Shown here: piece by piece, positions 5,142 to 33,537 of the stretch
How the letters are laid out: each line of letters starts with the position of its first letter
Position numbering within the stretch: position 1 is the stretch's first letter
Source: a virus
Taxonomy: Duplodnaviria > Caudoviricetes
IMG/VR virus record: IMGVR_UViG_3300032323_001295
Span: 1 to 56,825 of that record
Length of the DNA: 56,825 nucleotides
Reading direction: 5' to 3' (one strand)
The notes under the pieces: model-generated
What the model saw: only the letters and a program-made list of their open reading frames with translations
Told to the model about the DNA's origin: nothing
Databases searched by the model: none
Program-made: the position numbers and the translations under genes

Positions 5142-5163
5142 ATAACAAATAAAGGAGAGCACT

Positions 5164-5766: not shown

Positions 5767-5783
5767 CATTATCTACGTAGTTT

Positions 5784-5811: not shown

Positions 5812-5879
5812 GATTCTACGTTCTGGAACTACTGGCATAAATACATTGAAATAGGATTTTTTGTCCAGGAGTTTAAAAC

Positions 5880-7505
5880 ATGCCTTTACAGATTCGCAGA
5901 GGTAATAACGCCGAAAGGCAACAGATAACACCGGCGGCCGGCGAGCTAATCTACGTCACTGATACCAAGGTCGTATTTATTGGTGATGGTACCACACAGG
6001 GTGGTGTTCCAGTAATTAACTACAGCTCAGGAACTATCAAAGACTTAGCTGCTGAAGTTTTTACACAAGGTGTTCATAACGGGATTTCATTTACATATGA
6101 TTCAGTAACCAACAGAATCAATGCTAATGTCGAACCAGACCTCACAAACTACGAAGGAACTATTGGTGCTTCTGCATTTAAAGGTTCTTTCTTTGCTGAT
6201 GATTCCACAAGATTATTAAACGGTATTGACGGTAGTATCAATTTAAATGGTACCGTAAAAACTAATGTAATACCAGGAACAGACGGAGATTACGACCTAG
6301 GTAATCCAACATTTAGATTCAATGAATTGTATCTAGCTGGCCCAGCTTTATATTTGGGTGCTGCACAAATAGTAGCTTCAGGTAGTGCAATAAATCTACC
6401 TGCTGGTTCAACTGTGGCGGGAGTGCCAATTGGTACTGGTACAGGCAGCGGAGACGGTGTTGTTGAAGGAAGTAATTATAGAATTAATATCTACGGTCCA
6501 GACAGTACATTGATCGTAGATGCCGATAACGGATTCTTACAAGGTGACCTGCGTGGTTCAATCCAGGGTAATGTATTTGGTCCTGGAGACAGTGCTTTAA
6601 TTTTAGATGCCGATACAGCTACACTGTATGGATCTTTAGAAAACTCTAGTTTAAGTATTACGCAGACAGGTGCGATAATTGGTAAACGAACCTTTAGTGG
6701 TATTGACAGTCCTGTAGATATCGGTACTAGTACTACACCTAGCACATTACAGATTTTTTCTACTCAAAGATTAATCCAAGGTTTTGCAACCACAGACGGA
6801 ACACGTACAGGTGATATTGAGGTTAGTGTATCTAGAGGAACTATGTCTTCGCCTGTTATTGTACAAGCTGGAGATACATTGGGTGGTCTAAGATACGAAG
6901 CTCATGACGGTGGGGATTATCAATTTGCTAGTCAAATTAACTTCCTAGTTGATCCAAGATCAACACCGAGTGCAGGCAATATCGAATCTATGGTAATGAT
7001 CGATTTTACCCAGAATACAGTTGCTGGTGATAGATCTTTTGTGTTTGATGGCAATGGAGATTTTCATGCTCCGTTTTCAGTTAAGACATCAGTTAATTCT
7101 TTAGGTGTTTATGATCTTGCAGATCCAACAACAAAAATATTCACAGTTTATCAGGATCGTACTGCTACTTCTGGCGACTACACACAAGTAGCCACCAATG
7201 CCACTGAAACTGAAATAGTTTTTTCTTATCCTAAAGCAGATTATATCGGCGGAAAGATTATGCTCATAGTAAAGAATGGAACCACTGGTGGAACCAGCAT
7301 TACTGAACATAAGATAGTTAATACCACTTCAGCAGTATCGGATTTGATCATCGGAGCGATGCTTACAACTGGAACTGCACCTATCGCTGGTATTGTAACT
7401 CAAGTTGGTGCAACTAATGTAGACATTGGATTTGACACTTCTGCTACTAACACCGCTGGCGATGTGTTATCGTATAAAGCTGTAATTGAATTATTTACTG
7501 CTTAA
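5880..7505 (+). CDS. virion tail-fibre-like structural protein
   Basis: N-terminal LQIRRG...GELIYVTDTK..IGDG (Mtd/hyaluronidase N-terminal-like); G/T/S-rich; DDS and YDLG..LPAGSTV modules shared with 53516; TAAATA at 5838. Confidence 0.75.
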   Translation: MPLQIRRGNNAERQQITPAAGELIYVTDTKVVFIGDGTTQGGVPVINYSSGTIKDLAAEVFTQGVHNGISFTYDSVTNRINANVEPDLTNYEGTIGASAFKGSFFADDSTRLLNGIDGSINLNGTVKTNVIPGTDGDYDLGNPTFRFNELYLAGPALYLGAAQIVASGSAINLPAGSTVAGVPIGTGTGSGDGVVEGSNYRINIYGPDSTLIVDADNGFLQGDLRGSIQGNVFGPGDSALILDADTATLYGSLENSSLSITQTGAIIGKRTFSGIDSPVDIGTSTTPSTLQIFSTQRLIQGFATTDGTRTGDIEVSVSRGTMSSPVIVQAGDTLGGLRYEAHDGGDYQFASQINFLVDPRSTPSAGNIESMVMIDFTQNTVAGDRSFVFDGNGDFHAPFSVKTSVNSLGVYDLADPTTKIFTVYQDRTATSGDYTQVATNATETEIVFSYPKADYIGGKIMLIVKNGTTGGTSITEHKIVNTTSAVSDLIIGAMLTTGTAPIAGIVTQVGATNVDIGFDTSATNTAGDVLSYKAVIELFTA

Positions 7506-9053
7506 TTTTTTAAGTAACGGTTGGAAATAGTCAGCAAAGACTGTATCACGAAATAACTGGGGGAAATCGATAGATTCCCTCAGTTTTTTTATCTCTGCTG
7601 CGGATAGGTCTAATAATAGTTCTCTATCTCGCAATCTATCATCATTGAAAGAACTAAGATAGAAGTCACCTCGACATTCTCTAGGCACTAATGTTGGATT
7701 GATATCGTCGACGATATTCTGCGCTTGATCAAAACTATTGATATCTGTGTCGTCATCTTTGCGCCACTTGAAATAATTTTCCTCTGGATTAGGAAAATAA
7801 TAACCGTACTTGCTGTAATTTCTATCAATCTCACTCATGTACATGTACTTGACTAAATCGTGATTACCAATTATGCTGAGTGGAAACATATTGGCTAGGT
7901 CAACTGGACAGTCTGCTCTTCTAAAGAATTCTGCAGCCTTATAGATCGTATCGGTGCTTTCATAGGGCAGTCCTACTATAATGCCGGCAGCGATATAACT
8001 TCGATCGCCCCAGATGTCTTTACATTGATAGATAGTATCTACTAATCTTTCGCTGGCCATACCCTTGCCAATAAACTTAGCAGTCTTAGGATTGAATGTT
8101 TCTAATCCAAAGTAAGTTTCAGCGATGCCTGCATCTTTTAGTAATTTGATCTGTTCAGGATGTGCCGCTAATAGATCAGCACGTAGGTAACACCAGAACT
8201 TTAATTCAAACGGAAGGCTCTGGCTAATATCAGCAAACATCTGCATCTTCTCTGTGCTGTCATTGAATGTATCATCTACAATAAAGTATTTGGTAGTACC
8301 CCACTGCTCGTAGTTTTCTATAAGTTCTCTACGGATAACATCGGGATGTTTGAGATAGTCTGCGGTCTTTTGTCCTATTAAAGGATAAGAACAATAGGCA
8401 CATTTAAATTTACAACCTCTGCTGATTTCTAAATTAAGAGTTTCTTGCGGTTGTATAAAATCCCAATCAGTATATGCTGTGGTGCTAGATCTAAAATCCC
8501 ATACCGGATTGTGTGCTTTACGATCGTGATCTACAATACGACCTAATATGCGTCTATTCTTTCCTGAGAGGTTGTCTAAGAGATCTATAGTTTCAGTTTC
8601 GCCTATACCTACTATAATATGATCTACTGGAGCATTGAGATAGAAATCTATTTTTGCTCCACCTATGAATGTTCGTGTTTTTGGATTACGCTGTTTGACA
8701 TAGGATAACCAAGGATCATATTGATCTTTAGCAAAGGCTCCTATGAGATTGCTTTCAGTCAATCTAATTTCATCAAGGCCTTCTCCACCTTCGCCTGGAT
8801 TACGTGTGCGAACTCCTACATCGGGAAACTTATAAGGCATCCATGTAGTAGAATAACCCACAGCTAGAGTATCTTTACCTATGGCTAGATCTAATATATT
8901 GGTATACAACGACCAATCTAAAAGAGAACTGAAGTCTATTACTAGACAAGAATAACCATTGGCGCGGATATGGCTAGCTAATCTATGTACTCCGTAGCCT
9001 CTAGTTTTAACATCAAATTGTACACTATCTGCGAATAGTACAACGTTAAACAT
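7491..9053 (-). CDS. cobalamin-binding-domain radical SAM enzyme (class B-like)
   Basis: EISRGCKFKCAYC (CxxxCxxC); DDTFN; FGLET; N-terminal IGGA..DHIIVGIGE B12-domain-like. Confidence 0.85.
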   Translation of the reverse strand: MFNVVLFADSVQFDVKTRGYGVHRLASHIRANGYSCLVIDFSSLLDWSLYTNILDLAIGKDTLAVGYSTTWMPYKFPDVGVRTRNPGEGGEGLDEIRLTESNLIGAFAKDQYDPWLSYVKQRNPKTRTFIGGAKIDFYLNAPVDHIIVGIGETETIDLLDNLSGKNRRILGRIVDHDRKAHNPVWDFRSSTTAYTDWDFIQPQETLNLEISRGCKFKCAYCSYPLIGQKTADYLKHPDVIRRELIENYEQWGTTKYFIVDDTFNDSTEKMQMFADISQSLPFELKFWCYLRADLLAAHPEQIKLLKDAGIAETYFGLETFNPKTAKFIGKGMASERLVDTIYQCKDIWGDRSYIAAGIIVGLPYESTDTIYKAAEFFRRADCPVDLANMFPLSIIGNHDLVKYMYMSEIDRNYSKYGYYFPNPEENYFKWRKDDDTDINSFDQAQNIVDDINPTLVPRECRGDFYLSSFNDDRLRDRELLLDLSAAEIKKLRESIDFPQLFRDTVFADYFQPLLKKLSSK

Positions 9054-10665
9054 TTTTATTTTTTCTTAGTTTTTCTAACAAAGGCTCGAAGTAGTCTTTA
9101 TTAACTGATTCTATGTATAGTTGTTCGAAATCTATAGACGCAACTAATTGTTCGTACTCTTGTTTGGTCATGTCTATAGTACGCTCTCGATCTTTTAATA
9201 TAGGATGATCAAAAGAGCTGGCATAGAAATCTCCTCGTCGAGTGTTTTGATAGGCCTGTAATTCTCGATAGCTTTCGTCAGCTATTTGTTGCGCTACGTC
9301 GAAGTTAGGAATATCAGTATCGTCATTCTTTTCCCAATACAACCAACCTTCTATACCATCTCTGGGAAAGTGATATCCGTATTGTTCGTAATTGTTGTCA
9401 AACCAACTGGTAGGAAACCATTGATTGCGTTCGCTTTTCTTAACAATGTTTAGTGGATATACTGTAGATATATCTAGAGGACAATCATCACGTTTAATCC
9501 AATCCACAGTTTCTTGCCAGCTGGCGCGAGTTTCGTGTGGCAGGCCTATCATAAATCCACCCTCAGTCCATACACGATCGCCCCAGACTTCTTTAGCTTT
9601 GTACAGTGTATCTTTACGACGGCTGCTGCTCATACCTTTACCAATGGTCTTAGAACTTTTATCATTGAAAGTTTCTAAGCCAAAAAATGTTTCTGCTACA
9701 CCTAGCTCTTTCATTAGTTCTATCTGTTCAGGATTCGTAGCTAATAGATCTACACGAGTATAGCACCAGAACTTGATCTTAAAAGGCAAGTCTCTTACTA
9801 CCTTTAACATCATTTCTAATTTTTCTGTGCTATCGTTAAACGTATCATCCACGATAAAGTATTTGGTAGTACCCCATCGTTCCCAATTCTCATAGAGTTC
9901 ATCTCGAATGATATTAGGAAACTTAAGATAGTCGTTTACATTCTTTTGACCGATGAGAGGGAAGTTACAGAACGCACATTTAAATCTACAGCCACGCCCT
10001 ACTTCAAGATTAAGTGTTTCTTGAGATTGTATAAAATCATATTCTGTATACTTTGTAGAGCTTTCTCGAAAGTCCCATGTAGATGCATGTGCCTTACGAT
10101 CGTGATCAATGTATTTTCCAAACAAGCGTTTCATACCGCGACCACTAAGGCTGTGCAATAAATCTATAGTCATAGTTTCAGCAATGCCAAATATAACATG
10201 ATCTACATTTTGCAGGTCCATGTAGAAGTCTGCCTTAGCACCACCTAACACTATTTTAAGTTTAGGGTTGATCTTTTTAGGATATAACAGCCATTCTTCT
10301 ATTTCATCTTTGGCGAACTTAACCACCATATTATCTTTACGCCAATCGTATTTTTCTTCTTTGCTATTACTGAGTTCGTGTTCAACTCCGATATGATGTC
10401 CCGGAATTTGATTGGTAAACTCCCCGGGTAATTCTGGCCAACGATAGGGAAACCAAGTAGTGGAAAAACCTATCATATAAGTTTCTGGACCTACAGCTAG
10501 ATCCATGATTTCTTTGTATCGGTCAAAAGTAAGACCAGAACTAAAATCAATAACTAGGCAGGTGTATCCGTTGGCACGAATATGGCTGGCAATCCGTTGT
10601 ACACCATAACCTCGTAATTTATGATGTGGATATGGTGCGTCGGTAAATAGTATCACGTTGAACAT
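9046..10665 (-). CDS. cobalamin-binding-domain radical SAM enzyme (class B-like), paralog of 7491-9053
   Basis: EVGRGCRFKCAFC; near-identical blocks WGTTKYFIVDDTFNDSTEK, KFWCY. Confidence 0.85.
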   Translation of the reverse strand: MFNVILFTDAPYPHHKLRGYGVQRIASHIRANGYTCLVIDFSSGLTFDRYKEIMDLAVGPETYMIGFSTTWFPYRWPELPGEFTNQIPGHHIGVEHELSNSKEEKYDWRKDNMVVKFAKDEIEEWLLYPKKINPKLKIVLGGAKADFYMDLQNVDHVIFGIAETMTIDLLHSLSGRGMKRLFGKYIDHDRKAHASTWDFRESSTKYTEYDFIQSQETLNLEVGRGCRFKCAFCNFPLIGQKNVNDYLKFPNIIRDELYENWERWGTTKYFIVDDTFNDSTEKLEMMLKVVRDLPFKIKFWCYTRVDLLATNPEQIELMKELGVAETFFGLETFNDKSSKTIGKGMSSSRRKDTLYKAKEVWGDRVWTEGGFMIGLPHETRASWQETVDWIKRDDCPLDISTVYPLNIVKKSERNQWFPTSWFDNNYEQYGYHFPRDGIEGWLYWEKNDDTDIPNFDVAQQIADESYRELQAYQNTRRGDFYASSFDHPILKDRERTIDMTKQEYEQLVASIDFEQLYIESVNKDYFEPLLEKLRKNKNV

Positions 10666-10691
10666 GCTATATTTAATGTATTGTTATCACC

Positions 10692-11381
10692 ATGAAAAAA
10701 TTTAATTCAGTACTGGCATTCGGAGACAGCCATGTGGCAGGCTGTGAATTATCGAATAAGTATTCTTTTGAAGATTATTCTTCCGGACGTATTACTATTG
10801 AGGAAGCAGACAGCCCTGGCAAAGATCTAGCGTTTCCTAAATTAGTTGCAGATCGGTTAGGTATTCCCTGCCACAACTATGGTATGACCGGTGGCAGTAA
10901 CGATCGTAGTCTGCGAATGTTGATTAAAGCTGTTCAAGAATATCCCAACAGTCTTGTGCTGTTTGGTTATACCTGCACAGATAGAACTGAGTTTTATTAT
11001 CCAGATAAAGGAAAATTCCTCGGTAGAGACCACGAAGATTTTATACAGGTTGGATTACAATGGGAAGGAAAGATCAAAGGACGAATGCAACATCCTATCA
11101 ATGATCTATATGTAGAAAAAATTCTTAGACCCTATAACAATCTCAAAGATCTAATGTTTGTAGTTGATAATATCTGTACAGGCTGGGCAGTCGACTTCCG
11201 ACACTTGCCGCTGTTTCCTGAAGAACTACCAGAAATTGACAATGTTTTTAATTTCGAAGAACATAAGAATTATCTAGATTGGTGTGCTGCTCGAGGTTTC
11301 AAACAATTACCGTTCTTGCACTACGATCAACAGGCACATCAAACTCTATCAGATCTGATTCTTAAGGATCTAGGCGCATAG
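10692..11381 (+). CDS. SGNH/GDSL hydrolase-like protein
   Basis: AFGDSH block I; NYGMTGGSN block II; late His (FLHY). Confidence 0.65.
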   Translation: MKKFNSVLAFGDSHVAGCELSNKYSFEDYSSGRITIEEADSPGKDLAFPKLVADRLGIPCHNYGMTGGSNDRSLRMLIKAVQEYPNSLVLFGYTCTDRTEFYYPDKGKFLGRDHEDFIQVGLQWEGKIKGRMQHPINDLYVEKILRPYNNLKDLMFVVDNICTGWAVDFRHLPLFPEELPEIDNVFNFEEHKNYLDWCAARGFKQLPFLHYDQQAHQTLSDLILKDLGA

Positions 11382-12444
11382 CCTCTCTGCTACGGAATCG
11401 ATAACGTTCCGGCACAGTATCCCATAACATCATTCCTTTGTTTATAGCTGCATCCCTTAGCATGATCTGATGCAATAAATTTGTAATAGGTTTATTAGGC
11501 ACATAGTCACACCATGGGCCGCAGCGAAGTTCTTCTAGGTCGATGGTCTTAGGATCACTCCATTGTATCAATCGGTGATTGATTCCATTAATTTTAACCA
11601 TATAATGATATAGGTTATCATCGCCAGGGATTTTTTCCCATGTCCATCCTTTGCTGTCGGCATAGGCTTTTACTGCTTTAACATGGTCGCTAAGGTACCA
11701 GCGAGGTTCGTCGGGATTGCGACCAATATCGCTACCAGCTCTGATACGATACTGCCAAGATTGATTTCCAATTCTTTGTATTTCTTCTAACACATCAGGA
11801 ATGTGACCAACGTCTTCTAATGTATATCCTGTATAGTAAACAAATATTCCTACTTCGTTACAATTTTTAATACCTTCTAATTGTTTACGATGTACAGTAT
11901 CACCTTGATAGGTATGATGATTGAGTCCTATCATCACAGCACGACATCCAGCATCTTTGACTGCCTGCGCCCAAGCCTTGTCGGCGAATCTAACACCGTT
12001 GGTTAAAATAGTAACATCCTGATGCATACGATCTAGTCGAACTTGTAGTTCAATTATTTTACTGATTAATTCTGGAAGATCTCTTCTCAGTGTTGGTTCT
12101 GCGCCAGCGAGAATAACCGAACCAGCCTCTGCTGGCCAAGATTCGATTTGAGCTAAAATTAAATCTATGGGTTTGTCTGTTGCCGCATTTTCCGGTTCAT
12201 GATAACAATGTGGACATGCGAGATTGCATCTATCAGTTACTTCGATCATAATACCGCTAGGTACATCGTATCCGTAGGGATCGAACTCTAAGGTATTGTA
12301 AAATTCAGCATCTCGCTCGATCATATATTCTGTATCGCCATGTACTGGACATGTTTTTTTCATCCATACACTGCCGTCACGTTCAAACTTTTCAGCAGGT
12401 ATGTGTCTGTAACATTCTTCGCATAATGATGTTGTCATTGCCAT
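11362..12444 (-). CDS. radical SAM enzyme with N-terminal CxxC...CPxHG metal domain (MJ0619/Tes-like architecture)
   Basis: TSLCEEC...KKTCPVHG; EVTDRCNLACPHC; GAEPT; TNG. Confidence 0.8.
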   Translation of the reverse strand: MAMTTSLCEECYRHIPAEKFERDGSVWMKKTCPVHGDTEYMIERDAEFYNTLEFDPYGYDVPSGIMIEVTDRCNLACPHCYHEPENAATDKPIDLILAQIESWPAEAGSVILAGAEPTLRRDLPELISKIIELQVRLDRMHQDVTILTNGVRFADKAWAQAVKDAGCRAVMIGLNHHTYQGDTVHRKQLEGIKNCNEVGIFVYYTGYTLEDVGHIPDVLEEIQRIGNQSWQYRIRAGSDIGRNPDEPRWYLSDHVKAVKAYADSKGWTWEKIPGDDNLYHYMVKINGINHRLIQWSDPKTIDLEELRCGPWCDYVPNKPITNLLHQIMLRDAAINKGMMLWDTVPERYRFRSREAMRLDP

Positions 12445-12989
12445 CTTGGGTATTTTCCTAGTTCTTCATAAAATCGATCCGGCAATAGTTGCCAAACCGT
12501 TTGAGTTGTGCCTCTATAAAATAGGTCTTTCACTCTTTTCATCTGTCCAGTCTTTTCCATGGCAGGACCAAAAATCCTATGTACTAATCTTTGTGTGCCT
12601 GCATCGTTTTCATTACTGGTAATATACAAATCGCTGCCCTTAGGTGCCCACTCTATACAAGTCGGAATTAAAAATTGACTGGTAACGTGTTGGTGAGTAA
12701 CTATTTGATTAGCGGTACGCAGTGTATTTAACGGTAACAGATCAGTGAACACACATGTACGAGCCGCTATACGATAACTGTTCGGACCCATTTCGTCAAA
12801 CGAGTGTGCAGCCACTGATCCTACTGGAATTTTATTATAGTACAATATCCATACCTGTTTTTCACGTTCGTTGTTGAAACAATCAACTAGCATTTTTTGA
12901 CTGGCGTTATTAACAAATCCTCTACTTGCTGCTGTGGCGTAGAAATCTACTAAATCTAGATCAGGGGACCAAGGAATCACTTTATACAT
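12435..12989 (-). CDS. putative GNAT-fold protein
   Basis: 184 aa; WILYYNKIPVGSVAAH beta-hairpin pattern; no firm motif. Confidence 0.4.
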   Translation of the reverse strand: MYKVIPWSPDLDLVDFYATAASRGFVNNASQKMLVDCFNNEREKQVWILYYNKIPVGSVAAHSFDEMGPNSYRIAARTCVFTDLLPLNTLRTANQIVTHQHVTSQFLIPTCIEWAPKGSDLYITSNENDAGTQRLVHRIFGPAMEKTGQMKRVKDLFYRGTTQTVWQLLPDRFYEELGKYPRWQ

Positions 12990-13663
12990 TTTGCTTTTTC
13001 TATAAAATCTGCTGGATAATTCTTTCTAAAACTTTCCCAACATAATGTCTGTAGTAGATCAAATGGTTGAGGATCAGTCCAACTGATTCCCATACTGTCT
13101 GTTACTCGTTTCATTTCAGCCTGTCTTGTGCTGTAAATGTGACTGGTATGTTCTTCTATACTGATGTTAGGTTCATCTCGATGGTAGGTGAAAAAATAGT
13201 TTATACTTTTGAGATTTCCATCTACTATAAAGTAGCTACTAGGATGCATTGAGTATTTGTATAATCCTAGATTCCTATGTGCTTGAACAATGCTTAACAT
13301 TTGCTCTTGCCAATCAGGAAGTACGCTATCAAAATTTTCCTGTGTACATCCAGCACATTCCCAAAAGTCCGGACCTTGAACCTTTAGATATATTTTGCGT
13401 TCGGCGAAATTGATATCTAAGATTTCAGGAACTAAATTTGGATTGGTTTCAGACATCAATTTAAGATACTTTACTTCTCGATCAAACTTTTGTTCCATGA
13501 GAGCAGGATCAACGACTTCGTTTTGTCCTTTATGATATTCACCGTCATTGAAATACCATTGAACAAAAACTTTTTTATCGTCACTGATAAGGCTGGTGTA
13601 AATAAGATTGTTACGACACAGCCCATTTCCGGGTACATTATTATAGTAGTAATTATAATTCAT
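12977..13663 (-). CDS. protein-kinase-like fold protein (likely catalytically atypical)
   Basis: FDREVKYL..PEILD..YKYSMHPSSYFI..LKSINYF; paralog of 24458-25156; start reassigned to ATG 13663. Confidence 0.55.
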   Translation of the reverse strand: MNYNYYYNNVPGNGLCRNNLIYTSLISDDKKVFVQWYFNDGEYHKGQNEVVDPALMEQKFDREVKYLKLMSETNPNLVPEILDINFAERKIYLKVQGPDFWECAGCTQENFDSVLPDWQEQMLSIVQAHRNLGLYKYSMHPSSYFIVDGNLKSINYFFTYHRDEPNISIEEHTSHIYSTRQAEMKRVTDSMGISWTDPQPFDLLQTLCWESFRKNYPADFIEKAKCIK

Positions 13664-13702
13664 ATTGTAATTAGCTGAAAATTTAATTGAGAGAATCAAA
13701 TC

Positions 13703-14506
13703 GTGATTATAGGTATCAATAAACAACCGTATTTTGACATGGAATCATATCTGGATATGAATCAATTTGATCTTTTGCAACCAGAGATCATCCGTGGGTT
13801 TGCAGAAGCTAGAGAGTTCGCCAAAGAAGGAACATGGATGGCTCCGGGTTTTACGTTTAAAGATATGAGTTATCTAGTACATTGGAAACCTATATATCAG
13901 GCAATGCAAGAATTTCATAATTTACCCGACAGCGACCCGATTAAACAAGCAGGTATCGATCTGTATAGAGATTTTAAGAATTATAAAATTCGTAATAAAT
14001 TTACACGATATTTAAAAATGGCAATGGGTGCTTATGATCCTTACATTTATTATTTTCTGTGGGAGGAAGGTTCTTGGGATGATCGAACTGCTCCTCGCAA
14101 GCTCACCGAAGAAGCAGCACACTTTCCAGAAACTGTAAAGTGGGTTGAAAACTTAATCACGGAAGGTATCTTTGAACATATTGGTCGAGTGATATTCTTC
14201 CATTGCGAAGCAGACGGTATTCCTTTTGAGCATCGCGACTTAGATGCTAAGAACGGAATGGACCAAACTTTCCCGCATCGCAATGAGTTTATACACATAC
14301 GTCCTAACACCAAGAAAGCTATGTATCTATGGGATCCAGAAAACAAGAACAAAGTATACCTTAACACTCGAGCTGCTTGGTGGAATGATCAAGACTGGCA
14401 CGGTGGTGAGCGTATTATGGAGCCAAGCTATAGCCTACGTGTTGACGGAAAGTTTACCGAAGAGTTTCGAAAGAAACTAGGTATCGATCACATTGAAAAT
14501 TACTGA
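13703..14506 (+). CDS. 2OG-Fe(II) oxygenase-like (cupin) protein
   Basis: HRD...WHG...R facial-triad pattern. Confidence 0.65.
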   Translation: MIIGINKQPYFDMESYLDMNQFDLLQPEIIRGFAEAREFAKEGTWMAPGFTFKDMSYLVHWKPIYQAMQEFHNLPDSDPIKQAGIDLYRDFKNYKIRNKFTRYLKMAMGAYDPYIYYFLWEEGSWDDRTAPRKLTEEAAHFPETVKWVENLITEGIFEHIGRVIFFHCEADGIPFEHRDLDAKNGMDQTFPHRNEFIHIRPNTKKAMYLWDPENKNKVYLNTRAAWWNDQDWHGGERIMEPSYSLRVDGKFTEEFRKKLGIDHIENY

Positions 14507-16092: not shown

Positions 16093-16146
16093 TTAAATTT
16101 CCTATAATTACCACATATTTACACAGGACAGTAACGGCGTAAAAAA

Positions 16147-16154
16147 TATAAATA
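16147..16154 (+). promoter_or_regulatory. T4-type late promoter TATAAATA (divergent partner TAAATA on minus strand at 16116-16121)
   Basis: Exact T4 gp55 consensus in the intergenic gap between divergent genes. Confidence 0.6.
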
Positions 16155-16186
16155 TACAGCAAGAGTAAAAATCTTAAGGAATAAAC

Positions 16187-16783: not shown

Positions 16784-16833
16784 ATAAAAACTAGTTCATA
16801 AATAGTTTGAAAGATTTTCTTTCAAAATTATCT

Positions 16834-24422: not shown

Positions 24423-24457
24423 CTAATACTTATCTGCAAAGATTTTGCTGAAAAAAA

Positions 24458-25156: not shown

Positions 25157-25198
25157 TGAAAAATATTTATCGGGTGTTGTTGATAGCGTAAATAGAAC

Positions 25199-25963
25199 GT
25201 GGAACAGCCAAATAAATTAATAATGGATTCATTTAATGTAGAAGGGATCGAAATCCCTTTTGATAATAATTGGAATAGCATAGCCATCAGCCTCAGCGGA
25301 GGTGCTGATAGTGCTTTGTTAGCCTATCTACTCTGCGAACACATTAGAAAAAATCATCTAGAACATATAACAGTCCATGTTATCAGTCATATCAGATGTT
25401 GGAAATCTAAACCTTGGCAGAAATACGACAGTCTTAAGATCTATAATTGGGTCATACAAGAATTTAAAAAAATAAACTTTGAGCGTCATACAAATTTTAT
25501 CGCTCCTGATCTCGAGTATGCTGTTACTGGTCCTAGCCTAACAGACGAATACGGCAAAAAGGTCAGCGGAGACAATATACAGATCAGAGGATTTTCAGAA
25601 TACATCTGTCAGATAAACAATATTGATGCTTATTACAATGCAGTTACTAGAAATCCTAGAGGTGTTGATTTTCAGGGAATGAAAGAAAGAGATATAGAGT
25701 CCAACGAAAGCAATCAACATCTGGTATTAATGAAACATATGGATCGTTGGGCTATTCATCCTTTTAGATTTATTGAAAAGTCTTGGATCGTAGAACAATA
25801 CTACAAATTAGAATTAGAAGAATTGCTGAACAGCACCAGAAGCTGCGAGGGAGTAGTTCCCGGTGTTGACTATAAAACATATAAACCATATCAGTACGTT
25901 CCTGTCTGCGGAGAATGTTTCTGGTGTAAAGAAAGAGAGTGGGCCATTGAACACGCAAAGTAA
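25199..25963 (+). CDS. PP-loop ATPase, QueC-like (adenine nucleotide alpha hydrolase)
   Basis: SLSGGADS PP-loop; TRSC...CGECFWCKER Zn motif. Confidence 0.75.
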   Translation: MEQPNKLIMDSFNVEGIEIPFDNNWNSIAISLSGGADSALLAYLLCEHIRKNHLEHITVHVISHIRCWKSKPWQKYDSLKIYNWVIQEFKKINFERHTNFIAPDLEYAVTGPSLTDEYGKKVSGDNIQIRGFSEYICQINNIDAYYNAVTRNPRGVDFQGMKERDIESNESNQHLVLMKHMDRWAIHPFRFIEKSWIVEQYYKLELEELLNSTRSCEGVVPGVDYKTYKPYQYVPVCGECFWCKEREWAIEHAK

Positions 25964-27215
25964 AACATTTTGTATGCACCCGTTTACAGGGTTAGCAACT
26001 AGAGAAGACGGTGCAGTTAAAGTCTGCTGCCGATCAGCTCCCATCGGGTTTATACAGGACAGTTCATTAGAAGAAATCTGGAACGGCTATGCTATGCGTG
26101 AAGTACGTAAACAGATCCTTTGCGGAGAACGTCCGGAAGTATGTAAGCCCTGTTTTGATCTAGAAGATCAAGGAGTTGAAAGTCTACGTCAGCGTCATAT
26201 CAACGGAGTTATTCCTGAAGCACGTATTAACTTATATCCTAACGCATTGGATACATTGAGAGAAGATTACACAATGCCTTTTGAATTTCCCACTATGGAG
26301 ATCAAACTTAACAATCTCTGTAATCTAAAATGTCGTATGTGCCATCCGATGGATTCGACATCGTGGAATGATTGGAATCAGGTCAAAGACTTTTATGTAA
26401 AAGAAAATAATTACTTGGTTCCAGTGATCAGCAATCTAGGTTTAGAAACTAGCAGATATCTATGTCCATTCGAAGACACAGATAATTGGTGGGCCAGCTT
26501 TGAAAAACTATTACCACACTTTAGACGAGTAGAGTTTGCTGGCGGTGAGCCATTAATGGATCCGCAGCATTACAAAATTTTAGATATGTTGAAGCCTTAT
26601 GGAAAAAATATTGAACTCAAATACGCAACTAACGGAACAACAACAGGCATCAAAGGCGGTAGAACTATACACGACTATTGGCCACATTTCCGTAGCATTG
26701 CGGTTAATGTTAGCATCGACGGTATTCACTCTGTGTATGACTATATTCGCTCTAATTCTTCGTTTGCTACCGTAGAGGAAAATGTCAAAGTATTCCAATC
26801 ATTTCCTAATGTCAGCAGAGTCGTGGGAGCATTTACAGCACAGGCGGGAAACATCCTTCAGGCAGCAGAGTGCATTGATTATTTTATTAACGAAATGAAC
26901 ATAGTTTTTTATAGCCACAGAGTCAGCTATCCTAACTGCCTATCAGCGCAGGTGTTACCCCAAGAGTTAAAAGAATTAGCCATCAGTAGATTAGAAGCAG
27001 TGTCTAAAAGAGTTCCGTTGTTTGCTAATGTAGGAAAATATCCAATATTAGAAAAAATCACACAACAGCAGATCAAAGACAACATAAACTATCTACGAGC
27101 CAAAGATCAAAATCATCTTTGGAACGACTTTGTAGAGTTCAATCGAAAGTTAGATGCTACTAGAAGTCAGGGACCTTTAGAAAATATCGTGACAGAATTT
27201 AAACCTTATGTATAA
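25947..27215 (+). CDS. radical SAM enzyme with N-terminal SPASM/twitch domain
   Basis: CMHPF..DG.VKVCC..CKPC; CNLKCRMC; AGGEP; TNG; start likely TTG 25947. Confidence 0.88.
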   Translation: MNTQSKTFCMHPFTGLATREDGAVKVCCRSAPIGFIQDSSLEEIWNGYAMREVRKQILCGERPEVCKPCFDLEDQGVESLRQRHINGVIPEARINLYPNALDTLREDYTMPFEFPTMEIKLNNLCNLKCRMCHPMDSTSWNDWNQVKDFYVKENNYLVPVISNLGLETSRYLCPFEDTDNWWASFEKLLPHFRRVEFAGGEPLMDPQHYKILDMLKPYGKNIELKYATNGTTTGIKGGRTIHDYWPHFRSIAVNVSIDGIHSVYDYIRSNSSFATVEENVKVFQSFPNVSRVVGAFTAQAGNILQAAECIDYFINEMNIVFYSHRVSYPNCLSAQVLPQELKELAISRLEAVSKRVPLFANVGKYPILEKITQQQIKDNINYLRAKDQNHLWNDFVEFNRKLDATRSQGPLENIVTEFKPYV

Positions 27216-28104: not shown

Positions 28105-29068
28105 CAAACTTTGTAGCATTTATTTCTGGTTGACAGAAACAACCTTCCTGTCTACAGGTCGTTTCTTTAATCTCCGGAGCGAATGTTTCCTTGAACTTTT
28201 CATCAAATACATTATATTTGAAATCAAGATCATAAAGCGTTTCTCCGCAGGCTCCTTGTAGGTTGCCGTCTTTGTTGACATAAAGTGTTTCAATACCCAG
28301 ACTACAGCTCCATCCTTTGAAACGGTTTAGACCGTTCAATGATATCCAGTTCTTATCAACTTTCTTAGTAGTAAAATTTTCAAATGTCAGCTTAGGGTTT
28401 CTGCTGATCATCTTGTTATTTTTCAACCACCAAAACATATTAGGCATTCTTTTTACAGAATCGCTGATAAATTTTTTCTGATCTTCTGTATAGGAAATAG
28501 TAGAATGAGAAACTTCTAATGCTATAAGCGGCCACTTGTGTTTGCTATTCTTCAATCGTTCTATGATAGATAAACACTGATCCCATTGAGTAGGATCCAT
28601 TAATACCATTGCTGTTAGATCTACATTTTGTTTGTAAAGGCAATCAGCTACTTCGATAGTATGATCGGTATTGATAAATTGATGATGACAACTGATCATT
28701 ACATGATCAAAGTTCTTACCGTATTCTTGCCACCAACGCAGAGTACGTGATCCATTAGTGGATATACTAATAATACATCGATAATTGTCTTTGAAAAATC
28801 TAGTGAATCGTTCTATCTCGGGCCAGACGGTTGGTTCCCCGCCGATGATATGTATATGGAATCTTTTCTTACCTAGTTTTTCTTTATAATAATCAAATAA
28901 GAAACAGAGATTAGATGTTAATGGTTCTAGGTTAGGCCAGCGGTGTGTGCCTTCGTTGCTGCCTGGAAAACAATACCAACACTTGTAATTGCAGACATTG
29001 CTAAGAAATAATTCTATTCTCAGCAGATCCTGTGGTGCATTAGAATCTATCCGTACAATGTCTTTCAT
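28046..29068 (-). CDS. radical SAM enzyme with C-terminal SPASM/twitch-like domain
   Basis: CNYKCWYC; GGEPT; STNGSR; CSLG..DG..C..CRQEGCFC. Confidence 0.88.
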   Translation of the reverse strand: MKDIVRIDSNAPQDLLRIELFLSNVCNYKCWYCFPGSNEGTHRWPNLEPLTSNLCFLFDYYKEKLGKKRFHIHIIGGEPTVWPEIERFTRFFKDNYRCIISISTNGSRTLRWWQEYGKNFDHVMISCHHQFINTDHTIEVADCLYKQNVDLTAMVLMDPTQWDQCLSIIERLKNSKHKWPLIALEVSHSTISYTEDQKKFISDSVKRMPNMFWWLKNNKMISRNPKLTFENFTTKKVDKNWISLNGLNRFKGWSCSLGIETLYVNKDGNLQGACGETLYDLDFKYNVFDEKFKETFAPEIKETTCRQEGCFCQPEINATKFVKQDAILTMEYPLHRYTSL

Positions 29069-30477
29069 AGCAGATGTGCTAGTTCTGGAAATGTCTTTTT
29101 AAAGTCTGTTTTTCTCAGAGTATCTAATTTTTCTATATACTCTCGGAATGCAGGCAATAGATGTGTGTGATCTTCTGAATCCATAAAGTCTAACATAGCC
29201 TGCCAACGGCGCCAACCGTAGGGATTATATTTCCAAAAGTTATCATCTTGACGATAATTGTCCCACAACCATTGTTTGAACTCTGCAAACTTTTCTCTGA
29301 CTTCTTGTTTGTCCTGCTCGGGCAGCACACGTAGGCTAAGGAATGTTGGAATATACAGCAGATGCATATTAATAATACCACCGCCAGCATCTGCGCCTTC
29401 CATAACTTCAGCTAGATTTATTTTACGATAGTTTTTCTGTATCTTCCATTTGGCAAAGTCTGGAAGATGTTTGATGTTTAATATCTGTATGGCAGTGGCG
29501 ATGCTGACTTCTACATTGTCAGGAGTCTGATCTAGTATATCTAGATTCTTTTCTACTATGCTCCAATCCGTAGGGAATCTAATATAGTGATTACGATCAC
29601 CGTAGGCATCTTGGCTACAGGCAAATTTAACTTTCTTAAAGTTTTTCCATAGATCTATGATGTCTTGATCCAAAAGCAGTCCATTAGAATTGTATCTGAT
29701 CAGAATCTTGTCTGCATAACCTTGCCTTACGATTTCTTCTAAGAACAGTTTATGTTCTTTGATCATCAAGGGTTCACCGCCGGCGAAGTATACTTGCCTT
29801 AGGTTAGGAATCTGAGCATACATCTCTTTCCAGAAGTCTGGATTCTCATGCCAGAAGTTATTAAAATCTTCACGACCCCAGGCCATCTGCTCTTTTAGTT
29901 CTTTGGCTTGAAATAGAGGATACACTTTTTTGTGATCGGCTACCCATTGACTGCTGTCGTGTGGGCTACACATGATACATTTTAGATTACAGGTATGTCC
30001 TAGTCTGAGATCTAGATAAACTAAGTTTTCTGGTACGGTACCATCTTCTTCTGTCTGTTTAATTAATTCGGGTACGTCGATACCATCTTGTACCCATAGA
30101 CCAGTTTCCCACATGCGTTTGCTAGAAACACCTTTGGCTTCTTCATCGAAACATTTAGAACAGCTTTTGGGAATGTTACCTTCTAACATAGTGGTGCGCA
30201 CTGACCTCATGTATTCGTTGTTCCAGGCACTCATAGGGGTTTCTCTGCCAAAATTAGCAGGTCGACCAGTTTCGTTTTTCACAAGACCGATTTGATGATC
30301 TTCGCCGGCGCCACTGGAGTTAGCACCACAACAGAGTCTCATATCACCATTGGGTCTAGTAGCAAAGTGTATCCACGGCAGCACACAGAAAGTATGACTC
30401 CCGGAAAGATCAGCGACCTTACGCTGCCACTTACCTAGCAGGTTATCTTCGGGCTGTAACCAATAAATTTTATCCAT
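29065..30477 (-). CDS. radical SAM enzyme with N-terminal SPASM/twitch domain
   Basis: CVLPW..NG..RLCC..CSKC; CNLKCIMC; AGGEP. Confidence 0.88.
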   Translation of the reverse strand: MDKIYWLQPEDNLLGKWQRKVADLSGSHTFCVLPWIHFATRPNGDMRLCCGANSSGAGEDHQIGLVKNETGRPANFGRETPMSAWNNEYMRSVRTTMLEGNIPKSCSKCFDEEAKGVSSKRMWETGLWVQDGIDVPELIKQTEEDGTVPENLVYLDLRLGHTCNLKCIMCSPHDSSQWVADHKKVYPLFQAKELKEQMAWGREDFNNFWHENPDFWKEMYAQIPNLRQVYFAGGEPLMIKEHKLFLEEIVRQGYADKILIRYNSNGLLLDQDIIDLWKNFKKVKFACSQDAYGDRNHYIRFPTDWSIVEKNLDILDQTPDNVEVSIATAIQILNIKHLPDFAKWKIQKNYRKINLAEVMEGADAGGGIINMHLLYIPTFLSLRVLPEQDKQEVREKFAEFKQWLWDNYRQDDNFWKYNPYGWRRWQAMLDFMDSEDHTHLLPAFREYIEKLDTLRKTDFKKTFPELAHLL

Positions 30478-31561
30478 TAAATGTTTCTACTTTTACAAAT
30501 TGATCATCGTACTGTGTTAATATCTTTTCAGGAAATACTCCGCAGGTCTTAGCACAGGTAGCTAATTTTTTATCTTCCCAATATTTAGACCAAATATTTC
30601 TCCACTGCGAATCCGATAGTATTTCTTTTACGGATCTAGATTTTAGATCGATAGCGGTATAACCTCCTAGCGATTCTACCAGTTCGTTGATAACAGCAGT
30701 CTGTTCAGTCTGATATGTGTGAATAAGATCTGTAGACTTGCTGTAGATATAAGGCAGCGCACCTATCCAACAACAGGGCCATAGATTTTTAAAAGCATCT
30801 ATGTACAGAGATTTGTCCTGCATGACCTTGCAGCGTATTTCCGCTGTTTCAACTACTTTTTTATAACCTAAGATGATCTTAGGATCGATAAAAGTTATCT
30901 TATGTTCCTGTGGAGGCTCTATCTTATAAGCTAGGTTGCCATCTTGATCTAATACATCCAACCAGGGCTTTTCTAAAAATCTGCTAGTAGCTTTGTGATT
31001 AAACTTTTCAAAGCCCAGTGTTCTCGCTAATTCTTTTGCTTCATCGATCTGATGTTCGTTATGCTTGAAGCTGAGATAAACCCATTCTGCTTTGCCTCCA
31101 TTGCTGATAAACGTTTTAGCATTTTCAATAATCTTATTGAAGTCTGTGCCTATCCTATACAAATGATGCGTATCTGCTAATCCATCTAAGGCAAAATGCA
31201 CACAATGTTCTTCAGGCAATGCCTGTGCCAACTGCTGCCACCAATCTTTAGTTCTGGCACTGCCGTTAGTGTGGATACCTATGTTGATAGACGGCTTCAT
31301 GGTCTTGCAATATTCCACTATATCGATAAGGTCATTAGACATTATAGGATCGCCATAGTTTCCACAGAAATAGATATATCCAATCTGACCAAACACTTCA
31401 GCATCGACTATTTTTTTAAAATCTTCTAGAGATATTTCGTCTAAAGGAAGATTGGTATTTTTCTGACCGCCGTGATAGTTTCTTGCACACATAGGACAAC
31501 TGGCCTGACATCTCGAGGTCAATTCAATGTGCAGTGTTTTAAGTTCTGAAAAATCAAACAT
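30470..31561 (-). CDS. radical SAM enzyme with C-terminal twitch-like domain
   Basis: CQASCPMC; CGNYGDP; HTNG; PCCW..CAKTC. Confidence 0.85.
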   Translation of the reverse strand: MFDFSELKTLHIELTSRCQASCPMCARNYHGGQKNTNLPLDEISLEDFKKIVDAEVFGQIGYIYFCGNYGDPIMSNDLIDIVEYCKTMKPSINIGIHTNGSARTKDWWQQLAQALPEEHCVHFALDGLADTHHLYRIGTDFNKIIENAKTFISNGGKAEWVYLSFKHNEHQIDEAKELARTLGFEKFNHKATSRFLEKPWLDVLDQDGNLAYKIEPPQEHKITFIDPKIILGYKKVVETAEIRCKVMQDKSLYIDAFKNLWPCCWIGALPYIYSKSTDLIHTYQTEQTAVINELVESLGGYTAIDLKSRSVKEILSDSQWRNIWSKYWEDKKLATCAKTCGVFPEKILTQYDDQFVKVETFNG

Positions 31562-32150: not shown

Positions 32151-33121
32151 TTTGGTATCTTCGAGTCTGCTGAACTAAAACAGCTAGGTGTTGTACATAT
32201 CGTAGGAGATTTAAAAAGTTGAAAACCTTTAGTTAGGGTTCCTAATCTCATGTCGTGGCAACTATAACTTCTTTTAACTTCATCGCTCCGTATAATCACA
32301 CTCTGGAATCCAGAATTACAATGCCAATCTTCAAATTTGTTAAAACCAAAAGCGTTGAATCTTTCTGCTTGATCAAATAGATATTCTTTGCCTTCAGCAT
32401 CATATAGGGCTATTTGATACAGTTCTTCTCCGTTGGCGTGTTGAGGAAATCCTGTCTGCATTTTTTCTATCATATCATCTGTGTAACCTTCTACGATAAA
32501 ACTAGCAGTAGGATCGCTCTGTGGTTTTAGTGTTACATTAATTCCCCGGTCATGCAATCTTTTCATACGTTCATAAAGGTCATAGAACTTTTCCGGAACC
32601 ATAACCTGATTAATAGTTACATAGACTTGCTCATACATCAGTTGTAGGCATTTGTCTCCAAACTCTTGTTCTTTGGCAAACTCATCATGGAAACTGGCTG
32701 TTATGCTCCTACGCTGTAATAGTGAAGTTGCTTCGCACCAACTTTTCCACCACTTGCTACCAGGACTTAAATTCGTTGTCATGTGGACACTTTGGTAGCC
32801 GCTTTCTTTTTCGTCTAGGTGTTTAATCAATTCGATCAAGTCTTTATAGGCCGTAGGCTCACCGCCACTGAAACTCCAATGGAATTCTGTGAATCCATTT
32901 TCGCGAGCCTGTCTTTTGATTTCGTCTACGGTTCTTTTATAAACTTCTAAAGTGTCATAATCTACTTTGTCCGATCTAGCATAAGGCCAGCAGTAGGAAC
33001 ATTTATAATTACAGAAGCGACCAAGTATCCAACTTACAGAAAACAAAGGTCTGTCTAGCATAGTACGTTGTCCAAAGCGTACTATATTTTGAAATGGTAT
33101 TGATTTGAAATCGGTTGTCAT
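32141..33121 (-). CDS. radical SAM enzyme with C-terminal twitch-like domain
   Basis: CNYKCSYC; SGGEPT; TTNLS; CNSG..C..CTTPSC. Confidence 0.88.
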   Translation of the reverse strand: MTTDFKSIPFQNIVRFGQRTMLDRPLFSVSWILGRFCNYKCSYCWPYARSDKVDYDTLEVYKRTVDEIKRQARENGFTEFHWSFSGGEPTAYKDLIELIKHLDEKESGYQSVHMTTNLSPGSKWWKSWCEATSLLQRRSITASFHDEFAKEQEFGDKCLQLMYEQVYVTINQVMVPEKFYDLYERMKRLHDRGINVTLKPQSDPTASFIVEGYTDDMIEKMQTGFPQHANGEELYQIALYDAEGKEYLFDQAERFNAFGFNKFEDWHCNSGFQSVIIRSDEVKRSYSCHDMRLGTLTKGFQLFKSPTICTTPSCFSSADSKIPKCK

Positions 33122-33535: not shown

Positions 33536-33537
33536 AA

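Follow-up and report, generated by a model that had tools for sequence, protein, structure and literature searches.

A radical SAM-rich enzyme block conserved beside the tail-fibre genes of a lineage of large uncultivated myoviruses

The sequence analysed here, hereafter the window, is the whole of IMG/VR virus record IMGVR_UViG_3300032323_001295 (56,825 bases), which is a fragment of a large phage because its CheckV completeness is 16%. Between a tail-fibre-like gene and a tRNA-like RNA lies a block of modifying-enzyme genes (positions 7491 to 33121) rich in radical S-adenosylmethionine (SAM) enzymes. In a lineage of large uncultivated myoviruses, as we read it, this block forms a conserved accessory module within the tail-fibre/baseplate region. 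It is tiled by 28 open reading frames (ORFs) of at least 140 amino acids (aa) distributed over both strands, a recount that replaces the 26 contiguous ORFs of the initial annotation, and its largest gap is 94 nt (16092-16187). The G+C content of the block is 35-39% versus 40-43% in the right flank, and no nucleotide-level match to isolated phages was found for the cluster or the right flank. For 14000-23900 no RNA dataset containing the stretch was listed; sequencing runs labelled lake water and plankton metagenome contain 0.29 and 0.24 of its sampled words, and we do not take these labels as evidence of habitat. The fibre-like gene at the left border, the genes of the block, two intergenic motif pairs and the right border element are as follows.

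5880-7505, plus strand: tail-fibre-like gene, 541 aa, abutting the cluster; Mtd_N 43.5 bits
7491-9053, minus strand: radical SAM enzyme, B12-type paralogue a; PF04055 64.3 bits
9046-10665, minus strand: radical SAM enzyme, B12-type paralogue b, leading its unit; PF04055 66.1 bits
10692-11381, plus strand: 229-aa protein, SGNH-like by motif only
11362-12444, minus strand: radical SAM enzyme with N-terminal HMPTM zinc ribbon; PF04055 65 bits, PF23545 62.7 bits
12435-12989, minus strand: 184-aa protein (u184), no family match; 60-89% identical in four relatives
12977-13726, minus strand: protein-kinase-like paralogue a, no family match; 31% identical to 24458-25156
13703-14506, plus strand: 267-aa protein with invariant H177-x-D179...H233; no family match
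14500-16092, minus strand: flavin-dependent halogenase family protein; PF04820 296.6 bits
16116-16154, no strand assigned: divergent TAAATA pair before the halogenase and cup198 units
16187-16783, plus strand: cupin-like 198-aa protein (cup198), H110-x-D112...H170/H178; no family match; TAAATA 32 nt upstream
16807-18036, plus strand: class-III (omega) aminotransferase; PF00202 152.6 bits
17998-19068, minus strand: amidinotransferase; phrog_25854
19065-19496, minus strand: 143-aa amidinotransferase partner (u143); phrog_10325, 6e-24; beside the amidinotransferase in all relatives
19486-20097, minus strand: short protein resembling short-chain dehydrogenases/reductases (SDR); adh_short 23.8 bits
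20087-21409, minus strand: u440, 440 aa, mostly viral family, partner of the AspH-like oxygenase
21396-22049, minus strand: Asp/Asn beta-hydroxylase-family 2-oxoglutarate (2OG) oxygenase (AspH-like); PF05118 44.8 bits versus a cut-off of 22.6; H122-x-D124...H176 invariant
22037-22603, minus strand: cupin-like 188-aa protein, H73-x-D75...H motif; no family match
22593-23153, minus strand: cupin-like 186-aa protein, H107-x-D109...H164 in 9 homologues; no family match
23110-23751, minus strand: cupin-like 213-aa protein, H111-x-D113...H170 in 3 homologues; no family match
23748-24422, minus strand: cupin-like 224-aa protein (cup224), H80-x-D82...H125; PF05118 18.1 bits, below 22.6
24458-25156, minus strand: protein-kinase-like paralogue b, leading its unit
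25164-25194, no strand assigned: divergent TAAATA pair before the units starting at 25156 and 25199
25199-25963, plus strand: PP-loop ATPase with C-terminal Cys cluster, by motif; PF01171 20.6 bits
25863-27215, plus strand: N-terminal-twitch radical SAM enzyme a; NF033640 313 bits versus 170, PF04055 33.8 bits, SPASM 33.9 bits
27208-28104, plus strand: radical SAM enzyme, 298 aa (rSAM298), with C-terminal Cys-rich (SPASM/twitch-like) tail; PF04055 56.1 bits
28046-29068, minus strand: radical SAM enzyme, 340 aa; PF04055 41.5 bits
29065-30477, minus strand: N-terminal-twitch radical SAM enzyme b; NF033640 404 bits versus 170
30470-31561, minus strand: radical SAM enzyme, 363 aa (rSAM363); PF04055 47 bits
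31554-32150, minus strand: class-I methyltransferase-like protein (u198); NF045844 20.8 bits
32141-33121, minus strand: radical SAM enzyme, 326 aa (rSAM326), leading its unit; PF04055 55.4 bits
33185-33293, plus strand: tRNA-like RNA, 109 nt, right border; Rfam tRNA 24.8 bits

The nine radical SAM enzymes announced by the initial annotation were all recovered, as each scores above the PF04055 cut-off of 29.5 bits (33.8-66.1 bits) and CxxxCxxC is visible in all nine translations. By type they comprise two B12-type paralogues, one enzyme with an HMPTM zinc ribbon, two N-terminal-twitch enzymes and four enzymes with Cys-rich C-terminal tails. The B12-type paralogues are 52% identical and both begin MFNV. 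The B12-binding model PF02310 reaches 18.5 bits in 9046-10665, below its cut-off of 32.1, and is not listed at E≤0.01 in 7491-9053; NCBIfam B12/radical SAM models give the pair 70-86 bits against cut-offs of 360-600, the matches of 7491-9053 being partial. No tblastn match to the B12-type enzymes was obtained in isolated phages. The nearest NCBIfam models of the zinc-ribbon enzyme are TrsS and Tes, both below cut-off. Only the products of 25863-27215 and 29065-30477 pass the N_Twi_rSAM model (NF033640, cut-off 170), the other seven scoring below it, and the SPASM match lies N-terminal to the radical SAM core. rSAM298 is a paralogue of the 340-aa enzyme and of rSAM326.

Seven further ORFs (starting at 13703, 16187, 21396, 22037, 22593, 23110 and 23748) had been read as 2OG-Fe(II) enzymes. 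Their HxD...H motif is indeed invariant across three to nine homologues each, while only the AspH-like protein passes the 2OG-oxygenase model PF05118; 23748-24422 is sub-threshold and the remaining five have no family match. Profile-profile comparison (hhalign) of the seven cupin-like families and three unassigned ones gave a best probability of 8%, which is not significant. Seven 2OG oxygenases is hence a reasonable reading of a conserved motif and not a demonstrated fact. Several other labels survive in part. The 229-aa product of 10692-11381, present in four relatives, keeps the N-terminal GDSH behind its SGNH label and has no Pfam, PHROGs or NCBIfam match. The PP-loop protein has an invariant SGGxDS and invariant C216, C237, C240 and C243; its PF01171 score is below the cut-off of 27 bits, and a profile search of the PDB matched only the P-loop of NAD synthetases. 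For the kinase-like label there is a lead from a language-model comparison (Atlas score of 0.96 between 24458-25156 and RIO1/APH/Kdo-type clusters), with no family match and nothing useful in sequence or profile searches of the PDB. The methyltransferase label of u198 and the SDR label of 19486-20097 are weak, their scores falling below cut-offs of 65 and 26.6 bits, respectively. Finally, Pfam scans of the 28 ORFs returned no match to a nonribosomal peptide synthetase, polyketide synthase, transporter, peptidase or peptide precursor, as the initial annotation had stated; this holds for family matches and is not proof of absence because 13 of the 28 ORFs lack any Pfam match at E≤0.01.

The middle of the block carries the halogenase and a set of genes for amine and guanidine chemistry. 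Membership of 14500-16092 in the PrnA-like halogenase family is firm, and its best PDB match is VirX1 of cyanophage Syn10 (6e-54). An alignment including both Syn10 halogenase genes (A5) shows GGGTAGW, K72 and E351/E354 to be invariant. A review gives K79 as the catalytic lysine of VirX1; placing K72 in the K79 column relies on a residue count, which gives K75 in the VirX1 ORF. At the WxWxIP site the window reads WMFKIG, the window and three relatives follow W-M/I/L-F-K-I-G, and cyanophage and pelagiphage halogenases read WVW(N/K)(I/V)P. Since the window clade has WxFxIG in place of WxWxIP, the residues leave halogenating activity of this protein not assured. The pyridoxal-phosphate class III aminotransferase was likewise confirmed: its best PDB matches are omega-transaminases (1e-32), and it matches a daptide aminotransferase model at 2e-32, below cut-off and no better than generic models. 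The amidinotransferase has no Pfam match at E≤0.01, and its relationship to solved enzymes, over most of its length, is nevertheless firm, with phmmer matches in the PDB to StrB1 (9.4e-19), HsvA (1e-18), AGAT (3.6e-11) and SxtG (7.8e-9). Near its C-terminus it reads GIHCLT, the Cys of which may be the catalytic one. Scanning genome contigs with the single amidinotransferase sequence gave 14 pattern matches, none of which was confirmed.

We used the halogenase to scan IMG/VR and retrieved four other contigs (G001-G004). The gene families of the block follow in near-identical order, 28/28 in G001 and G003 and 27/28 in G004, G002 stopping inside the block, with amino-acid identities to the window from about 30% to 92%. 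Radical SAM matches number 9, 8, 11 and 16 in the four relatives, the highest figure being that of G004 (82,510 bases; loci L013-L015 and L012), which also has a second paralogue of the halogenase and, upstream of an enzyme block of about 40 kb, an ORF of 4692 aa. At the other end of the block, the window (G000), G001 and G002 have the same phage genes, including u154 and ThyX, with an FkbM gene in the window and G001 only. The initial annotation had set a host chromosomal island mis-joined to a phage contig as the finding that would overturn it. Four independent contigs show the block in synteny, flanked on either side by phage genes; it is therefore integral to phage genomes and conserved in them, and no mis-joined host island.

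An alignment-based scan of IMG/VR with u440 gave 108 relatives, of which 80 loci were kept, 20 in the near clade and 60 in a distant clade whose u440 proteins are 34-48% identical to that of the window (mostly 35-38%). Counts for the distant clade cover genes up to 10 kb from u440 and take tblastn matches at E≤1e-6 that align half of the query or more; because many loci are short, these counts are lower bounds. The rSAM298/340/326 family and u198 were found in 60/60 loci, rSAM363 in at least 56, the N-terminal-twitch enzymes in at least 50-51 and the AspH-like oxygenase in at least 50; the PP-loop protein occurred in at least 28, cup224 in at least 23 and the kinase-like proteins in at least 19. 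The halogenase, aminotransferase, amidinotransferase, u143, B12-type and zinc-ribbon radical SAM enzymes were found in none of the 60 within that distance. By its gene content the block is thus a composite of a widespread core and a lineage-specific add-on. The core comprises the AspH-like oxygenase, u440, five or six SPASM/twitch radical SAM enzymes, u198, the PP-loop ATPase, the kinase-like proteins and further cupin oxygenases. The add-on comprises the SDR, u143, the amidinotransferase, the aminotransferase, the halogenase, the two B12-type radical SAM enzymes and the zinc-ribbon enzyme.

At the centre of the core we place, on the grounds of their recurrent fusion, the pair formed by the AspH-like oxygenase and u440, whose genes overlap at the start of u440. 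A search of a large protein collection returned 343 homologues of u440, none with a functional name, and 889 representative clusters (E≤1e-3); there was no tblastn match in isolated phages and no solved relative in the PDB, by sequence or by profile. On a Pseudobdellovibrionaceae contig (L067) the two genes are a single 808-aa ORF carrying PF05118. Among 16 long u440 representatives drawn from the best 150 matches, 10 are AspH fusions of 643-741 aa, five in the order AspH-u440 and five in the order u440-AspH; an earlier search for fused u440 forms longer than 770 aa had found none. That the domains occur fused in either order speaks for joint action of the two proteins. In a further representative of 1167 aa (P0258), the N-terminal part is u440-like and is joined to one resembling B12-type radical SAM enzymes.

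Position beside the fibre genes is the other conserved property of the block. A homologue of the fibre-like gene abuts the B12-type end in all four contigs that reach that point (the window, G001, G003 and G004). In the distant clade, all 27 loci whose sequence continues for 5.8 kb or more upstream of the rSAM326 homologue match residues 2326-2452 of the 2455-aa fibre protein of the window (about 40% identity), and the same 27 match the C-terminal part of the tail fibre of Campylobacter phage CP220; none of the 29 shorter loci extends to the position of the fibre match. Between this match and the core lie about 5 kb that hold, in locus L149, a fibre-like ORF of 288 aa together with four ORFs (2858-6668) in which DxD-like motifs occur. 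That the latter encode glycosyltransferases was a guess left unconfirmed by BLASTP (E 0.25 with the window glycosyltransferase and E 1.1 with a CP220 sugar transferase), and two of them gave nothing useful in PDB searches. One DxD-type ORF matches a single isolated phage, the Ralstonia jumbo phage RsoM2USA. In that phage ORF347-355, all annotated as hypothetical, are collinear with the distant-clade arrangement of fibre-like gene, DxD-type ORFs and core genes, with identities of 35% for the u198 homologue, 24% for the N-terminal-twitch enzyme and 32-44% for the four DxD-type ORFs. The authors of its genome report annotate the neighbours of this mini-module as structural protein, tail sheath, a structural protein of 2541 aa and baseplate. 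RsoM2USA differs from the window in having one radical SAM gene instead of nine, and u440, the AspH-like gene and the add-on genes were not detected in it at E≤1e-4. Near the mini-module (203000-211225, L190) it has about eleven consecutive hypothetical ORFs of 190-220 aa, none of which matches the cupin-like proteins of the window (E≤1e-4). The location noted in the initial annotation, next to a tail-fibre-like gene, is thus seen in the window, in 27/27 distant loci and in RsoM2USA.

The motif TAAATA, proposed earlier as a late-type signal, is depleted in the window (31 sites against 75 expected from shuffled sequences), and at 13 of the 31 sites an ORF on the same strand starts no more than 45 nt downstream, compared to 0.8 expected if evenly spread, a control that ignores the A+T richness of intergenic DNA. 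It precedes both fibre genes (5880 and 46149) and the cluster genes starting at 10665, 10692, 16092, 16187, 16807, 25156, 25199 and 33121; both fibre genes and seven cluster starts, those of six genes that lead their units and of the aminotransferase gene 16807, count among the 13. The motif is kept before the fibre gene and the leading B12-type gene in 4/4 contigs each, and before the halogenase and cup198 in 4/5 each. Late units of the T4 type carry, some 10 bp ahead of the transcript start, an element resembling TATAAATA, and they depend on a gp55-type factor; no gp55 gene is present in this fragment. The full T4 octamer TATAAATA occurs once in the window against 5.75 expected, and was rejected as a signal here. 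Published work on CBB, a relative of RsoM2USA, describes ATAAATA before structural genes at 35 places, taken as a late promoter, and that on cyanomyoviruses gives the late promoter as NATAAATA. TAAATA, placed ahead of the units, agrees with these reported late promoters of CBB-type jumbo phages and of cyanomyoviruses.

The core also has cellular relatives. A scan with the single N-terminal-twitch sequence gave only two short contigs from metagenome-assembled genomes, so that an alignment-based scan was needed. An alignment of eleven such enzymes was run against one genome per prokaryote species, and the best 80 of 137 relatives, to which all counts below refer, make up 79 loci (L031-L109) with 180 N-terminal-twitch paralogues. 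Record titles assign 65 of the 79 to Bdellovibrionota, many on contigs of 0.15-3 Mb. By tblastn, rSAM363 and rSAM326 are present in 29 loci each, u198 in 16, the AspH-like protein in 6, u440 in 4 and the amidinotransferase in 1. Homologues of 29065-30477 are about 50% identical in Bdellovibrionota, and those of rSAM326 51-53%. These islands resemble the block in their multiple radical SAM genes with rSAM363 and u198 homologues, some AspH-u440 fusions and one amidinotransferase; they differ in being cellular and in having no fibre homologue detected nearby by tblastn with the window proteins. Among the neighbouring gene families that were annotated, a NodU-type carbamoyltransferase is present in 7 loci, glycosyltransferase 2 (GT2) is represented by one family in 7 loci and another in 6, and an ABC ATPase is present in 6. 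In all, 21 of the 79 loci have at least one of these within 10 kb, and one locus has a GmhA-like SIS protein. Such neighbours hint at surface-glycan chemistry, no more, because GT2 genes are common in bacteria and the 21/79 comes with no background rate. A literature search found no published description of these multi-radical SAM islands.

Parts of the block have counterparts in cultivated phages. Halogenase homologues occur in 60 phage records, nearly all Kyanoviridae. In islands of Kyanoviridae (S-RIM44, and Syn10 with VirX1) and of HTVC008M, the halogenase stands beside several small 2OG oxygenases among fibre, neck and terminase genes; these halogenases are 26-29% identical to that of the window in alignment A5 (30-34% by tblastn), and the S-RIM44, Syn10 and HTVC008M islands, unlike the window, have no radical SAM genes. 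VirX1 is an iodinating enzyme with no known natural substrate, and DNA repair or 2OG drawdown have been suggested for the cyanophage halogenase/2OG islands. Homologues of the amidinotransferase are found in Campylobacter phages CP220 and F379, Synechococcus phage S-SCSM2R and marine single-virus contigs. A CP220/CPt10 module of five radical SAM genes and an amidinotransferase was noted in 2010, and its authors proposed a boost to host metabolism at low oxygen (Timms et al. 2010, PMC2853527). The window shares with CP220 the clustering of several radical SAM genes with an amidinotransferase in a phage, that of CP220 being of the glycine/inosamine type and the module lying some kb from a tail-fibre gene. 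The amidinotransferases are 28% identical and three radical SAM proteins 21-32%, with a homologue of rSAM363 among the CP220 proteins. The CP220 module has 12 genes compared to 28, and the stretch read has no halogenase, aminotransferase, B12-type radical SAM, u440 or AspH-like gene; it adjoins two nucleotide-diphospho-sugar transferases and a PAP2 phosphatase, with QueD also nearby. In S-SCSM2R the amidinotransferase adjoins KdsA, KdsB and 2OG oxygenases, and its authors report the amidinotransferase and one 2OG oxygenase in the virion proteome. An unusual number of radical SAM genes is also known from a marine T4-like environmental viral genome, which has 12; they are reported as a count, in a discussion of Fe-S cluster metabolism (Nishimura et al. 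2017, PMC5332604).

The flanks of the block contain genes that bear on its possible role.

33999-34661, right flank: FkbM-family methyltransferase
34665-35336, right flank: ThyX, ordinary type
41247-41771, right flank: PTPS/QueD-like protein
41968-42798, right flank: DAHP_synth_1 (KdsA-like) protein, 38% identical to S-SCSM2R KdsA
42773-43561, right flank: putative glycosyltransferase
46149-53516: 2455-aa protein matching several tail-fibre PHROGs

Further fibre-like genes in the window include one of 779 aa, and downstream of the 2455-aa and 779-aa genes a collagen-like ORF (55869-56825, plus strand) with 39 and 10 consecutive G-X-Y triplets runs off the 3′ end. The conserved protein of 38409-39614 is about 33% identical to those of PA5oct-type and other large myoviruses. 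The start of the window carries 13 tRNA genes. The tRNA-like RNA at the right border, claimed by the initial annotation, has a sub-threshold Rfam match (gathering score 29) and is kept at the same place in G001 (80%) and G002 (75%); ARAGORN, with and without introns, reported no tRNA at 33185-33293, and a single-sequence fold was no more stable than shuffles (z -0.22). Its 3′ part consists of a T-arm, acceptor strand and CCA, and in G002 one acceptor-stem pair is changed on both sides. Between this element and u154, a 154-aa Gly/Ser/Thr-rich ORF (33538-34002) with no family match, a small basic Lys/Ala-rich ORF of about 64 codons (33342-33536, plus strand), also with no family match, was spotted by eye. 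An 89-aa ORF (3253-3522, plus strand) has 35-45% matches in three Bdellovibrionota loci among the best 80 of 137 relatives, and may be a parvulin-type peptidyl-prolyl isomerase.

Taken together, we consider it nearly an even proposition that the block encodes a late-expressed system that decorates the virion, most likely its fibre proteins. The block would be transcribed with the late structural genes, and its enzymes would build or tailor a non-genetic decoration. We favour a tailored sugar, amino-polyol or amine that would then be attached to the virion, a form of the proposal that by itself is rather doubtful, over direct modification of protein side chains, which we consider unlikely. Streptidine is formed by way of a dehydrogenase, an aminotransferase, a kinase and an amidinotransferase. 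Judged from their families, the SDR would oxidise a hydroxyl, the class-III aminotransferase would aminate the oxidised position, and the amidinotransferase would convert the amine to a guanidine with arginine as the donor, in a streptidine-like manner; an intermediate may be phosphorylated by the kinase-like proteins, as happens on the way to streptidine. C-methyl groups, hydroxyls and other changes may come from the radical SAM enzymes, B12-type and other, together with the methyltransferase-like proteins and the oxygenases. The likeness to the streptidine branch lies in this order of functions and in StrB1, the best solved relative of the amidinotransferase, which acts on an inosamine phosphate; the differences are that the aminotransferase of the window is of class III and not of the DegT type, that the block has no cyclitol synthase or glycosyltransferase, and that identity is low. 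Hints of sugar chemistry come from the sugar transferases of CP220, KdsA and KdsB of S-SCSM2R, and FkbM, the KdsA-like protein and the glycosyltransferase in the flank of the window.

Several observations weigh against a virion decoration system. Adjacency to the fibre is inherited together with the fibre gene, so that the 27/27 are not 27 independent events and the counts show long-term retention instead, and published work indicates that accessory genes tend to accumulate in such regions of T4-like genomes. TAAATA lies only 4, 7 and 10 nt before the minus-strand starts at 10665, 25156 and 33121, and at least one of these start codons is secure given that both B12-type paralogues begin MFNV. 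This spacing is too close for a leadered T4-type transcript; the transcripts from these starts would be leaderless, or TAAATA would have another role. The core also sits in chromosomes of Bdellovibrionota, which make no virions, and for that reason does not depend on virions as such. Inside 7491-33121 we found neither a glycosyltransferase nor any other recognisable transferase, the nearest being at 42773, 9.6 kb off, and 13 of the 28 ORFs have no family assignment. The 541-aa fibre contains no tryptophan; therefore the halogenase does not act on Trp of that fibre. As to S-SCSM2R, its authors consider that the two enzymes detected with the virion are unlikely to be structural proteins.

Other roles can be envisaged for the same genes. 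The enzymes could act on the host, remodelling its lipopolysaccharide, capsule or envelope polymer, for instance to block superinfection or favour release, or could alter a metabolite pool as auxiliary metabolism, with nothing placed on the virion. The bacterial core homologues lie in islands with GT2, carbamoyltransferase and ABC ATPase genes and a GmhA-like SIS protein, the window has KdsA-like and glycosyltransferase genes nearby, the S-SCSM2R amidinotransferase sits among cell-wall sugar genes, and the kinase-like proteins resemble Kdo/WaaP-type clusters, which is a lead only. PF05118 also covers lipid A hydroxylases. We nonetheless judge a host-directed role unlikely, as the block shares position and motif with the fibre genes in every relative and Pfam scans revealed no flippase, polymerase or lipid-carrier gene in it. 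A diffusible small molecule, guanidino, halogenated and aminocyclitol-like or amino-acid-derived, could also be made from a host primary metabolite with no need for a scaffold synthase. The set of SDR, aminotransferase, amidinotransferase and kinase-like genes follows the same logic as the route to streptidine, in line with the StrB1 match, and genes for halogenases and B12-type radical SAM enzymes typically belong to secondary metabolism; the S-SCSM2R authors name their three genes 'antibiotic synthesis genes'. On the other hand, Pfam scans of the block found no exporter, resistance or regulator gene, a lytic phage has scant time to gain from a secreted product, and the core is fibre-linked in all relatives, so that we rate this explanation as quite unlikely.

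Hypermodification of nucleic acids, either packaged DNA (of the deazaguanine or thymidine type) or phage tRNAs, seems to us improbable. It would account for the PTPS/QueD-like gene at 41247, QueD near the CP220 module, the weak resemblance of three radical SAM enzymes to QueE (down to E 6.5e-9, far below cut-off), and the 13 tRNA genes and tRNA-like RNA nearby. The PP-loop ATPase ends in CGxCxxC, as QueC does, yet its profile matches only the P-loop of NAD synthetases. Pfam searches of the 28 block and 12 flanking ORFs gave no match to QueC, QueE, TGT/DpdA, a hydroxymethylase, a DNA kinase or a pyrophosphorylase, only PTPS and ThyX, although such absence is weak evidence in a record of 16% completeness. 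Of the targets named in the initial annotation, packaged DNA has the least support: genes of the transglycosylase, DNA kinase or hydroxymethylase type were not seen, and the neighbouring ThyX is an ordinary thymidylate synthase. Least probable of all, in our opinion, is a proteusin-like pathway for a ribosomally synthesised and post-translationally modified peptide with its precursor gene outside the block. Paired B12-type radical SAM enzymes, SPASM/twitch enzymes, an Asp/Asn hydroxylase-family oxygenase and a halogenase bring to mind polytheonamide-type and related peptide pathways, and the aminotransferase has the sub-threshold match to the daptide model mentioned above. Against this, a precursor ORF would not fit into gaps of at most 94 nt, Pfam matched neither a PqqD-like recognition domain nor a protease or exporter in the block (where 13 ORFs are without assignment), and Pfam scans of the window gave no nitrile-hydratase-like leader gene.

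Phage clusters of radical SAM genes have been on record since 2010 (CP220), with a further case in 2017 (the marine T4-like genome), and cyanophage halogenase/2OG islands around 2009-2010, none with an assigned function; our literature search likewise found no paper that assigns a function to such a radical SAM cluster. What is new here is the scale and combination of the block, which is the largest such enzyme set we have met apart from that of G004 with its 16 radical SAM matches, its division into core and add-on, the AspH-u440 fusion, the retention of the core beside fibres as far as RsoM2USA, and the reservoir in Bdellovibrionota. The comparison thereby points to a cultured phage with a cut-down core and to a cellular reservoir in predatory bacteria. 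In a bolder form of the virion decoration proposal, which we put forward as speculation and think unlikely, phages of this lineage would rebuild their fibres after translation with a radical SAM-rich kit that has the AspH-like oxygenase and u440 at its centre. The adducts, which would be guanidinylated, methylated and perhaps halogenated, would tune receptor binding, and Bdellovibrionota would use the same core on cell-surface or prey-recognition structures. If true, this would be the first radical SAM-dependent virion modification system and an enzymatic route to host-range variation. If the product of the block decorates fibres, it would add a new layer to the chemistry of phage-host recognition and would be a source of new radical SAM reactions.

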